Shown: positions 17,099-19,695 of the stretch, piece after piece
How positions within the stretch are numbered: the stretch's first letter is position 1
Layout: the number at the start of each line of letters is the position of its first letter
Assembly (NCBI GenBank): GCA_964612505.1
Contig: CAZTEX010000010.1
Location: forward strand, 2,274 to 66,273
Reading direction: 5' to 3'
Source of the DNA: an uncultured bacterium
Lineage (GTDB): Bacteria > Chlamydiota > Chlamydiia > Chlamydiales > JAAZZY01
Length of the DNA: 64,000 bases
Position numbers and translations under genes: made by a program
The notes under the pieces: model-generated
The model's database searches: none
What the model was told of the DNA's origin: nothing
What the model saw: the letters and a program-made list of their open reading frames with translations, nothing else

Positions 17099-17242
17099 TT
17101 AGCAACCAACTATATCACAACAGTCTGAACCTCCACCCGATGATCCATCACAATCAGCTGTGTTCTTTTGAAAGTCTTTCTGAAAATAATCTTCTAATAC
17201 CGACTTTAATTTATTTTTTATTTTATCTTTGATTTGCAACAT
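17099..17242 (-). CDS. Unannotated 47-aa peptide with Cys/Gly/Ser/Asp-rich C-terminus (precursor-peptide or metal-binding candidate)
   Basis: Translated by hand: MLQIKDKIKNKLKSVLEDYFQKDFQKNTADCDGSSGGGSDCCDIVGC*. AGGT RBS-like element upstream; starts 12 nt after the upstream gene's stop; followed by the hairpin. Confidence 0.7.
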   Translation of the reverse strand: MLQIKDKIKNKLKSVLEDYFQKDFQKNTADCDGSSGGGSDCCDIVGC

Positions 17243-17254
17243 ATAATTTACCTA

Positions 17255-17695
17255 TTAATTAAATAAAGATTTAAAAATTTTGTACTTTAACCATTTTTTA
17301 AATTTTGTCCGAGGCCTAATAACAGTCATAGGTTGTTGAAAAAGCTCTATAAGTAACTGTTGAGCTTTTTGATGTTGATTTTTTAACCTTTCGCGTTCTG
17401 AACGACTCTCACCTCGAATAGACGGTCTATGATGAAGATACTTGCCAGCTATAAAAGTACAATCTTTAGTGTATTTTTCTGTGTCTAAAATATGTTGATG
17501 CCAAAATTCATCAACATCAGTAGAAGGAGAAAAGCTATGTTCCCCAGCGTATTTAATGCAAATATAAATAAAGTTTTTGTATTGCTTTTCAGCTTCCTCT
17601 GCTTCGCTTTTCAGCCAATTATAATTGGTTATTAGCTTTTTTTTGATAATCGCAAGATCTAACTGACTTATTTTTTCACGTAAAACACTATCCAT
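17255..17695 (-). CDS. Glycine-rich-domain-protein-like (GRDP/DUF1399-like) His-motif protein
   Basis: EAEKQYKNF, PSTDVDEFWHQHILDTEKYTKDC and GKYLHHRP; likely start at M20 of the listed ORF (17695). Confidence 0.75.
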   Translation of the reverse strand: MDSVLREKISQLDLAIIKKKLITNYNWLKSEAEEAEKQYKNFIYICIKYAGEHSFSPSTDVDEFWHQHILDTEKYTKDCTFIAGKYLHHRPSIRGESRSERERLKNQHQKAQQLLIELFQQPMTVIRPRTKFKKWLKYKIFKSLFN

Positions 17696-17838
17696 AAGAC
17701 TAAGCTCAAACAAAATGAAATAAATCTTATATGCTGACAAATATCCCAGCAAGTGAATCTTTTATAGGATAAGGCTAACCGTTTAAAGAGTCGTCTAACT
17801 AAAAAGAGTTTCTAAGTCAAATAGTGAAAATGAGCTAA

Positions 17839-19695
17839 TCAGTTTAGTATGCCTACCGATTGATAAGAATCAAATCCAGATGGTTGAATTATTTGATAAC
17901 TACTCCATAGATTATAAAATAGACCTTTTAAAGAAATTAGATATTCAAAAGTACCATTTTCAATTATTTTACCATCATGCAAAACTAAAATGTTATCAGC
18001 GTAAATAATCGTGTTTAATCGATGGGCTATAATTACTTTAGTTGTATTTGGACGAAACTTATAAATAAAATCCATAATTTTTCTTTCAGTATAAAAGTCC
18101 AAAAATGAAGTTGCTTCATCTAAAATAAGTAAAGATTTCATTTTTAACAAAGCACGAGCTAAAGCTATCCTTTGTTTTTCTCCACCAGAGATTTTGTATC
18201 CTCTTTCTCCTATAGTCGTGTTTAATTTATCAGGCAATCCATATGCAAAATCATAAATACAGCACCCTCTAAGTGCATTATCAATTTCTTCATTTGATAT
18301 GTTACCTAAGCCATAAGTAAGGTTGTAAAGCAGAGAATCATTGAACATGCAATTATCTTGCTGTACAACAGAGAAAATAGAAGCTAAAGAAGCATGTGTG
18401 TATTGAGTTAATTCTTGCTCATCCAGTTCAATAGTTCCGTTATTTAACTCATATAAACGCAAAAGAAGCTTAGTCAAAGTAGACTTTCCAGAACCAGTTA
18501 ATCCTACTATTGCAGTCGTTGAGCCAGCAGGAATAGTAAAAGAAAGATTTTTTAAAAGTAACTTATTATCAAGATAGCCAAAAGAAACATTTTTGAAAGC
18601 AATTTGTCCTTTGATAATTTTGGAATGTTTTTCTGCAAAATCAATATCAGGTTCATTTGCGTTATTATTAATAAGTTCTATTCCCTTTTTGATGCTATTT
18701 AAGCCTTCATTGGTTTTTTGGATTTGATTTCCCAATGTTATTAAAGGAATTGCAAATTGTATAAGATAGCCGTGAATGATAAAAAAATCATTACATTGGA
18801 TGGAGTGATTTGAAAAATCAAGAGAGGCTTTATAGATAAATATAAGATAGCAGCAACCAATAATGAAGGCTTGTAATAACCGATTGATAGAAGTTATGTA
18901 ACGGTTAGATACAGCTGCTTTTTTTTGCTTTTCAAGCTGCTGATCTAGTTTCGTAAATTCGTGATCGTATGTGTAATTAAATTTTATATTTTGAAAATTA
19001 ATCAACGAATCGGAAATTTTTATATAAGTTTTGGTTGTTTCCTTTGTTAATTCGCTCAAAACTGTAATTGTTTTTAGTGAAAAAAGAGCAGTACATAAAC
19101 AATAAATACAAAAAGTTAAAATTAATCCAAGTCCATAGAATATTCCATAAAAGTATGTCAAAATCATGCTTACAATAATCAGCTCTAAAAAAGTAGGTAT
19201 ATTGTAAAAAAATAACCACCAAAAGATTTCTGGCAAATTTCGCTGTATTTGAAAAATTAAGCTTGAAAGTTCTCCTAATTTTTTATTCAGCAGGTTTTGA
19301 TAGGAAAGCAAATATATTTTCTTTATCACCCTTAAAACAAATTTTTTGGATGCCTGCTCGATAACTTTGTGCATTAGCATTTCTCTAATAATGCGGATTA
19401 CACGATTGAAAATCCAACAGGCTCCATAAAATATGATAATCTGAGAAAAAAGAGATCTTTTTAAGTTATCTGTATAAACAAAGCTATGGCGGAGTAAGAG
19501 AGGTAAAGAAACATTTAAAGAAATAGAAAGGATTATAATGAAAAAACTAATAGTTTTATTTAATTTTTGACCTTTGTTTTCATTAAAAATGATGAAAAAA
19601 ACTTCTTTGTAAATAGCAAAGTGTGTACCAATATTTTGGATAAGCTGTTTTAAATAACTTAATTTGTGATCTGCTTTTGTAGTGTTTGCTTTCAA
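17839..19695 (-). CDS. ABC exporter, fused TMD-NBD, Atm1/HMT-1-like
   Basis: Six-TM domain with FYNIPTFLE (Atm1-like FNIxPTxxE), Walker A GLTGSGKST, signature ISGGEKQR, Walker B LILDEATS, IAHRL. Confidence 0.88.
   Translation of the reverse strand: MKANTTKADHKLSYLKQLIQNIGTHFAIYKEVFFIIFNENKGQKLNKTISFFIIILSISLNVSLPLLLRHSFVYTDNLKRSLFSQIIIFYGACWIFNRVIRIIREMLMHKVIEQASKKFVLRVIKKIYLLSYQNLLNKKLGELSSLIFQIQRNLPEIFWWLFFYNIPTFLELIIVSMILTYFYGIFYGLGLILTFCIYCLCTALFSLKTITVLSELTKETTKTYIKISDSLINFQNIKFNYTYDHEFTKLDQQLEKQKKAAVSNRYITSINRLLQAFIIGCCYLIFIYKASLDFSNHSIQCNDFFIIHGYLIQFAIPLITLGNQIQKTNEGLNSIKKGIELINNNANEPDIDFAEKHSKIIKGQIAFKNVSFGYLDNKLLLKNLSFTIPAGSTTAIVGLTGSGKSTLTKLLLRLYELNNGTIELDEQELTQYTHASLASIFSVVQQDNCMFNDSLLYNLTYGLGNISNEEIDNALRGCCIYDFAYGLPDKLNTTIGERGYKISGGEKQRIALARALLKMKSLLILDEATSFLDFYTERKIMDFIYKFRPNTTKVIIAHRLNTIIYADNILVLHDGKIIENGTFEYLISLKGLFYNLWSSYQIIQPSGFDSYQSVGILN

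Follow-up and report, generated by a model that had tools for sequence, protein, structure and literature searches.

The window considered here, a stretch of 64,000 nucleotides (nt) from an uncultured bacterium of the Chlamydiales, carries on its minus strand three adjoining genes, which code for an ATP-binding cassette (ABC) half-transporter of the ABCB type, a His-rich, all-helical protein of the UCP032817/glycine-rich domain protein (GRDP)-like family, designated P0001, and a Cys- and Gly-rich peptide of 47 amino acids (Table 1). Comparison of related loci gives good support to the view that the Cys-rich tail of this family, usually carried in cis, can also be encoded as a separate leader-core peptide. 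The position of the peptide gene next to the domain gene fits the layout of systems for peptides that are ribosomally synthesized and modified post-translationally (RiPPs), with a candidate precursor beside its putative tailoring enzyme.

Genes and features of the locus

The first-pass annotation had described three co-oriented minus-strand genes in an AT-rich patch, the last of them absent from the list of open reading frames (ORFs), and both the ORFs and the base composition bear this out. The G+C content is 0.25-0.31 over positions 17000-20250, against 0.365 for the window, which makes this its most AT-rich patch, and the third-position G+C contents (GC3) of the three genes are the lowest in the window (0.228, 0.233 and 0.255), the value of 0.228 for the transporter gene being matched only by a methyltransferase gene at 14211-15146. 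The patch had also been said to end at a hairpin. A stem-loop is indeed present, 50 nt past the stop codon of the peptide gene and between that gene and a convergent thioredoxin gene, and it is a possible bidirectional terminator; it has no U-run, the z-score of its region is only -1.8, and it is missing from the list produced by the terminator scan. The two sigma-70-like promoter matches 5' of the transporter gene are weak evidence, since the region holds fewer such sites than its own shuffles. Across positions 12000-31000 there is almost no DNA similarity to genomes of the same genus, so that the borders of an island cannot be drawn.

The longest ORF of the domain gene runs from a TTG (17255-17752, minus strand); the ATG at 17695 is the likelier start, and the 146-amino-acid form that begins there is the one called on 24 metagenome contigs. 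The peptide ORF shares the reading frame of the domain gene, its ATG lying 12 nt past the domain stop, and the junction reads TAA TAG GTA AAT TAT, with an in-frame TAG opening the spacer. At its length the peptide falls below the default threshold of 60 amino acids of the ORF list; it is among the genes predicted on 10 metagenome contigs from this organism and is presumably translated. It consists, as described earlier, of a Lys-rich, helical leader of about 28 residues and an Asp/Gly/Cys-rich core of 19 residues with four Cys. Among 12,683 six-frame ORFs of at least 30 amino acids in the 1.86-Mb genome, the peptide is one of two with at least four Cys and at least four Gly in the last 20 residues, and the codon-usage log-likelihood at the peptide is positive in the annotated frame only. 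A reading of the peptide as a double-glycine bacteriocin was rejected because the window holds neither a C39 peptidase nor a leader of the LS..EL..GG type.

Table 1. Coordinates of the features discussed (window positions, unless a locus number is given)
Feature	Position	Strand	Remarks
ABCB-type half-transporter gene	17839-19695	-	618 amino acids; PF00664 + PF00005
UCP032817/GRDP-like His-rich all-helical protein (P0001)	17255-17695	-	146 amino acids from ATG 17695
47-amino-acid Cys/Gly peptide ORF	17099-17242	-	Lys-rich leader of ~28 amino acids + Asp/Gly/Cys core
Junction of domain gene and peptide ORF	17243-17257	-	TAA + 12-nt spacer; read from the sequence
Stem-loop	~17019-17048	-	12-bp stem with one bulge; minimum free energy fold
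Two sigma-70-like promoter matches 5' of the ABC gene	19801-19916	-	Consensus scan, 9/12 each
58-amino-acid ORF of other chlamydiae	L247:7295-7468; homologues in L248-L250, L255-L259		58-100% identity between genomes
NHLP clusters with GRDP-like gene	L252:7229-13113; L253:2287-8889; L254:1703-7639
Legionellales-order operons	L210-L228, also L058, L153, L192; e.g. L153:1171-4387
Two-Cys membrane protein	L037:5767-6492; L041:5649-6251; L039:5561-6175; L120:4660-5208; L040:1960-2298	-

The GRDP-like family and its Cys-rich segments

The assignment of the middle gene to the GRDP/DUF1399-like proteins, proposed beforehand together with its WHQHILDT...LHH motif, stands: the motif is present, and P0001 scores 24.3 bits against PF07173 (GRDP-like; cut-off 22.7 bits), or 23.8 bits in the genome scan, which found no second GRDP-like gene in the 1.86-Mb genome. 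The protein is precomputed as PF27765 (UCP032817-like), and its neighbours in the ESM Atlas are 85-99% PF27765. The family is large, a profile search giving 12,146 representative clusters at E ≤ 0.001, and P0001 holds every invariant and near-invariant column (W27, Y39, D62, W65, H66, H68, D71, T72, Y75, D78, C79, H89 and P91; alignments of 124 and 79 sequences). Its AlphaFold2 model comprises seven helices (pLDDT 89.3, pTM 0.81). Neither sequence-profile nor Foldseek searches gave a PDB relative of the domain below E = 1, and profile scans of P0001 and its neighbours found no RiPP recognition element or known class of tailoring enzyme. The C-terminus of P0001 is a basic amphipathic helix without Cys, and no Cys/Gly tail follows in the same polypeptide. 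The family is catalogued, though uncharacterised, and the locus represents a variant of it in which domain and Cys/Gly segment are split.

The plant GRDPs (AtGRDP1/2 and GhGRDP1) share with this protein the W-H-x-H-I-L-D-T...Y..DC...HH-P motif, a predicted helical fold and the association of the domain with Gly- or Cys-rich segments, and differ in that at the present locus a gene of its own encodes the Cys/Gly segment and an ABC exporter is encoded alongside. Papers on the plant proteins give physiological phenotypes and no chemistry (PMC4299439, PMC8585784, PMC13001069). Such physiological papers were all that the searched literature offered on the domain, with no link to RiPPs.

In nearly all of the roughly 300 family members that were inspected a Cys-containing tail is present in cis, in agreement with the first-pass annotation. 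The tails are variable, sometimes with Ser, and include types rich in Gly/Asp/His/Cys, rich in CxxC, or built of tandem repeats of the A-[YWF]-[CS]-G type. The repeat-tailed members lie directly 3' of genes for CHASE-domain sensors, which are histidine kinases or GGDEF-EAL proteins. A CHASE domain occurs in 41 of the 78 co-oriented upstream neighbours (L045, L053, L059, L090 and 37 more within L036-L195), although these loci are not independent because most are from Burkholderiales, and a scan of the window organism's own genome found no CHASE domain. The Gly/Asp/His/Cys-tailed members P0002 and P0011 (L024:4932-6621) sit 3' of an Ion_trans_2/TrkA_N potassium-channel gene pair, which was seen on independent metagenome contigs and accounts for 3 of the 78 upstream neighbours.

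The proteins without a tail group as one clade (SH-aLRT 90-99) and, like P0001, end in a basic amphipathic helix. At 16 of the 19 loci of this clade a small Cys-peptide gene shares the strand of the domain gene and adjoins it, either 3' or 5'. Each of the eight peptide genes that lie 3' is preceded, at the right spacing, by a Shine-Dalgarno sequence of GGAG type, and those that lie 5' came from a scan in which such a site was required. Of the two kinds of neighbour for which the first-pass annotation proposed to scan the homologues, short Cys-rich ORFs were recovered, and ABC exporters, as shown below, were rare outside the chlamydiae. Its suggestion that the tail is here a separate leader-core peptide gains weight from these small genes and from the chlamydial NHLP clusters and leader-binding fusion described below.

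Two classes of separate peptide can be recognised beside tail-less members. The first, of 20-24 amino acids, begins with MKK, continues with a basic stretch and PA-x-C, and ends after a further 2-6 residues; it is encoded 3' of the domain gene in L037, L040, L041, L120 and L155 (in looser form in L038, L039 and L043) and 5' of it in L046, L117 and L195. The peptide genes of L037 and L040 are separated by seven synonymous and five non-synonymous codon differences. A motif for this class has 8 matches in 158 kb of these loci, all on the strand of the gene, against one in the other family loci (967 kb) and none in the 1.86-Mb genome of the window organism, counts which overstate the contrast because the motif was written after the peptides had been seen. 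Seven of the eight peptides of this class that were looked up are not in a collection of 15 billion proteins, and the pairing escapes standard annotation, since that collection lacks the majority of the small peptide genes. The second class, of 46-56 amino acids, combines a leader that is conserved with a Gly-rich core (C-x3-C-x3-C) and is encoded directly 5' of the domain gene, in 12 loci of a Legionellales-order clade and in L153 and L192 from other collections.

At several loci of the 20-24-amino-acid class a gene convergent to that of the peptide codes for a member of an unannotated family of membrane proteins, which span the membrane once, have two conserved Cys and give no Pfam match. 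This third conserved gene of the subgroup was set aside for the locus studied here; it has no homologue in the window organism's genome and is unrelated to the thioredoxin of the window.

A profile search of 400 genomes of the chlamydial phylum gave 18 with the domain, always without a tail, and none of them in the window organism's own family. In 10 of the 16 chlamydial loci fetched, the domain gene overlaps at its start with a conserved ORF of 58 amino acids, at whose end a leader-like LS-EALE--AAG motif precedes a core that contains CC; the match of this ORF to the NHLP leader profile is sub-threshold. Three loci (L252, L253 and L254) are clusters of NHLP type, with precursors that pass the TIGR03793 cut-off and have short Cys cores. 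Their exporters comprise NHLM_micro_ABC1, which includes a C39 peptidase and scores 881 bits versus 853, together with ABC2 and HlyD pieces. The GRDP-like protein is the sole candidate tailoring enzyme in these clusters, because the flanks are housekeeping genes. A fusion of the domain to a winged helix and a thiazole/oxazole-modified microcin (TOMM) leader-peptide-binding domain (TIGR03882, 71.5 versus 36.9 bits) occurs in L253, and the fusion to the TOMM leader-binding domain is also found in ORFs of L238 and L240. The clusters and the fusion together are the strongest evidence that the domain may act on leader-bearing peptides.

The studied locus resembles NHLP/Nif11-type RiPP systems (TIGR03793, TIGR03796, TIGR03797) in its combination of a putative precursor, a putative tailoring protein and ABC export, and in that a GRDP-like gene lies inside such clusters in three other chlamydiae. 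It differs from them in that the window's peptide has no NHLP leader and its ABC protein lacks C39 and is not of NHLM type. Scans of the window organism's genome (97.8% complete) found no C39 peptidase, and one for NHLP leaders gave no match, a result that is uninformative because the control was silent in every genome.

A different context is seen in 16 Legionellales-order loci, where genes for a TonB-dependent receptor and TonB are followed by a precursor ORF, where one was found, and by the GRDP-like gene. This operon looks like a metallophore-type uptake unit, a TonB-dependent receptor together with TonB being the usual signature of metallophore uptake. For the locus studied here there is an alternative, in which the domain would be a metal- or thiol-handling protein, the peptide a gene-encoded phytochelatin-like chelator that it loads or holds, and the ABC protein an Atm1/HMT-1-like exporter of the metal-thiolate, in a metallophore or detoxification role. 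The conserved His/Asp/Cys cluster of the domain resembles a metal site, many of the family tails, with runs of CxxC or stretches of His/Gly/Cys, look like metallothionein or ferredoxin, the peptide class closest in organisation, that of 46-56 amino acids, shares its operon with the TonB-dependent receptor and TonB, and the ABC protein is nearest to Atm1-type exporters. Yet the window organism's own genome has no TonB, the NHLP leaders, C39 exporters and leader-binding fusion point to enzymatic maturation over mere binding, and the replacement of Cys by Ser in some repeat tails is a poor fit to thiolate chelation. Chelation as the whole explanation is considered improbable; it is compatible with enzymatic action of the domain, as the modified peptide may itself chelate.

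The same context invites comparison with the methanobactin/bufferin-type RiPP metallophores from multinuclear non-haem iron oxidase (MNIO) systems. These likewise have Cys-rich precursors or tails, modified there for metal binding, and the Legionellales-order relatives likewise have TonB-dependent receptor genes in their operons. The studied locus differs in that scans of its genome found neither MNIO (PF05114) nor TonB (TonB_C), in the absence of a match to TIGR04222, the family of Cys-tail proteins treated in PMC12452194, and in a candidate enzyme of another, uncharacterised fold.

The proposed precursor-enzyme pair

The account preferred here, tentatively and with somewhat less than an even chance, is that P0001 and the peptide form a functional, RiPP-like split enzyme-substrate pair, the product of which is exported by the ABC protein. 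The pair would represent, in split form, a module of wide occurrence: a His-rich helical domain acting on a short Cys-rich segment, which in most members of the family is fused to the domain's own C-terminus. As a metal-dependent tailoring enzyme, the domain would recognise the Lys-rich helical leader of the peptide and modify the Cys of its Asp/Gly/Cys core, which would make the two a RiPP-like precursor-enzyme pair, and the half-transporter, encoded directly 5' on the same strand, would export the product. A similar duality of fused and split enzyme and core is found in the BURP-domain peptide cyclases (burpitides), whose metal-type His-motif domain is either fused to repeated cores or acts on separate precursors, and whose established chemistry is the formation of Cu-dependent aromatic cross-links. 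The BURP cyclases are unrelated to the GRDP-like family in fold and sequence, and the latter further differs in having its cores at the C-terminus and no known chemistry.

Several observations weigh against this account. The searched literature holds no biochemistry of any family member, and the domain could bind the peptide rather than modify it. The peptide gene has a weak Shine-Dalgarno sequence (an AGG 8 nt 5' of the ATG), only the peptide itself was returned when 5.8 billion proteins were searched, and comparison with leader families, the NHLP leader (TIGR03793) and TIGR04222 included, gave no match. With the other small Cys-peptide classes no homology can be demonstrated: the profile of the 46-56-amino-acid class gives the peptide 5.7 bits (E ~27), at a rank of about 85 among 36,572 genome segments, and a resemblance to that class noted by eye (LL.EIF, RF and ADC) was dropped after this score. 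Selection on the peptide ORF is unmeasurable because the strains are too alike, the ten metagenome contigs being 99.97-100% identical over 3 kb. Finally, P0001 stands on a long branch, and it joins the tail-less clade at a support of 85.8 with placement in an alternative clade not rejected.

This placement bears on the origin of the pair. The approximately unbiased test does not reject a tree in which P0001 is constrained to group with the Gly/Asp/Cys-tailed clade (p-AU 0.957). The scores of P0001 reach at most 83 bits with other chlamydial members and up to 96 bits with Legionellales-order/gammaproteobacterial ones. Horizontal acquisition would fit, because P0001 is no closer to the chlamydiae than to these and the domain is absent from the organism's own genus and family. 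The shared frame of domain and peptide would suggest fission of a cis-tailed gene; for P0001, such a fission and descent inside the split clade cannot be separated.

The same features allow a less favourable explanation, that the 47-amino-acid ORF is a relic: the in-frame TAA and TAG would have severed an ancestral Gly/Cys tail carried in cis, and the ORF would be its untranslated remnant in a gene that was acquired horizontally and is decaying. The position of the peptide ORF, in the frame of the domain gene and 12 nt beyond its stop, the standing of the constrained tree and the absence of the domain gene from the genus and family all agree with it, as does the MAFFT alignment, in which the peptide core is matched with the beginning of cis tails in relatives such as P0018 and which is weak evidence because the sequence is of low complexity. 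Against decay, however, P0001 terminates in a basic amphipathic helix, as complete members of the tail-less type typically do, about 75 residues separate domain and core and include a new ATG with its upstream AGG, GC-rich Cys/Gly codons persist in a region of 31% G+C, and an open frame of 47 codons would arise by chance in about 2% of cases (an estimate from base composition). Split architectures are, moreover, common and clearly functional in relatives. A relic is accordingly the least probable of the explanations weighed here, and quite unlikely.

A broader proposal, which goes further than the pair and is held to be rather doubtful, is that the UCP032817/GRDP-like domain represents a new class of RiPP-tailoring enzyme acting on Cys, and sometimes Ser, with its substrate supplied by any of three interchangeable routes: in cis, as single or multiple cores; on its own, as a tiny peptide; or by way of NHLP leaders and a fused leader-binding domain. 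The present locus would then be a minimal exporter-enzyme-precursor cassette, its product a secreted, Cys-derived and possibly metal-binding peptide, and the plant GRDP proteins could rest on the same chemistry. The GRDP/DUF1399 family spans kingdoms and has no known biochemistry, and the locus offers a directly testable entry to its function. The split forms comprise the studied locus, the classes of 20-24 and 46-56 amino acids, the chlamydial 58-amino-acid peptide and the NHLP clusters; the function of the domain becomes a matter for a two-plasmid experiment, because enzyme and substrate, the latter of 20-100 residues, are separate genes.

The half-transporter and neighbouring genes

The ABC protein consists of a transmembrane and a nucleotide-binding domain. 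Its best database homologues, at 32-37% identity, are named as ABCB or heavy-metal (Atm1-type) transporters, and its best half-transporter structures in the PDB are those of ATM3 (7n58), ABCB6 and NaAtm1 (4mrn). The earlier label of an Atm1-like exporter is therefore apt, in that among half-transporters the protein is closest to the Atm1/ATM3/ABCB6 group. With the thiol-metal exporters Atm1, ABCB7, HMT-1 and NaAtm1 it shares half-transporter architecture as well as these best structures and named homologues. It differs from them in that the identity is only 32-37%, that no NCBIfam equivalog cut-off is reached and that the two nearest homologues are exporters of non-ribosomal peptide synthetase (NRPS) clusters. 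The NHLM profiles give it 208-236 bits, with cut-offs of 709-853.

As to the exporter's part in the proposed system, the evidence is divided. The protein carries no C39 peptidase domain, the two nearest homologues with known context (36-37% identity) sit among MbtH, phosphopantetheinyl transferase (PPTase), CmlA-type hydroxylase and NRPS genes, and an ABC-like gene neighbours the domain gene in 1 of 160 family loci outside the chlamydiae. The three-gene system that the first-pass annotation had presented is not, on this count, a conserved unit, and its exporter could serve a polyketide synthase (PKS)-NRPS cluster instead. Such a cluster, with PPTase and methyltransferase, ends at 15146, about 2 kb away and on the other strand, and its methyltransferase gene has the same GC3 of 0.228 as the ABC gene. 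In this alternative the ABC protein would export a lipopeptide-like product of the cluster, and the GRDP-like gene and the peptide would be an independent two-gene module.

Other observations favour a link of the ABC gene to the pair, whose very low GC3 it shares. It is opposite in strand to the PKS genes, with the thioredoxin reductase and thioredoxin genes in between, whereas it is co-oriented with the domain and peptide genes at a distance of 143 nt, and a consensus scan found no promoter-like site in this gap. Three somewhat more distant homologues (34-35% identity) lie in housekeeping surroundings, and GRDP-like genes adjoin peptide-export ABC genes in three other chlamydiae. Service to the PKS-NRPS cluster, with an independent module beside it, is possible but on the unlikely side. 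As for the ABC gene itself, the odds that it belongs to the domain/peptide pair are roughly even, and the protein may export either the product of the peptide or that of the PKS-NRPS cluster nearby. Beside that cluster, the locus would be a second likely source of a secreted product in a host-associated chlamydial genome of 1.86 Mb.

Two other neighbourhoods of the window may be mentioned. The genes at 15268-17008 on the plus strand, convergent on the peptide gene, are trxB and a gene for a thioredoxin of 248 amino acids, which has a signal-like N-terminus and an additional helical domain, and whose relatives match in the thioredoxin fold only. A faint precomputed match of this protein is PedC-like, PedC being a bacteriocin disulfide accessory protein. 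At about 30490-30710 lies a second ABC-type gene, which, unlike that at 17839-19695, shows similarity at the DNA level to ABC loci of related genomes (e.g. G004:C18), and which probably codes for a housekeeping MsbA-like exporter.

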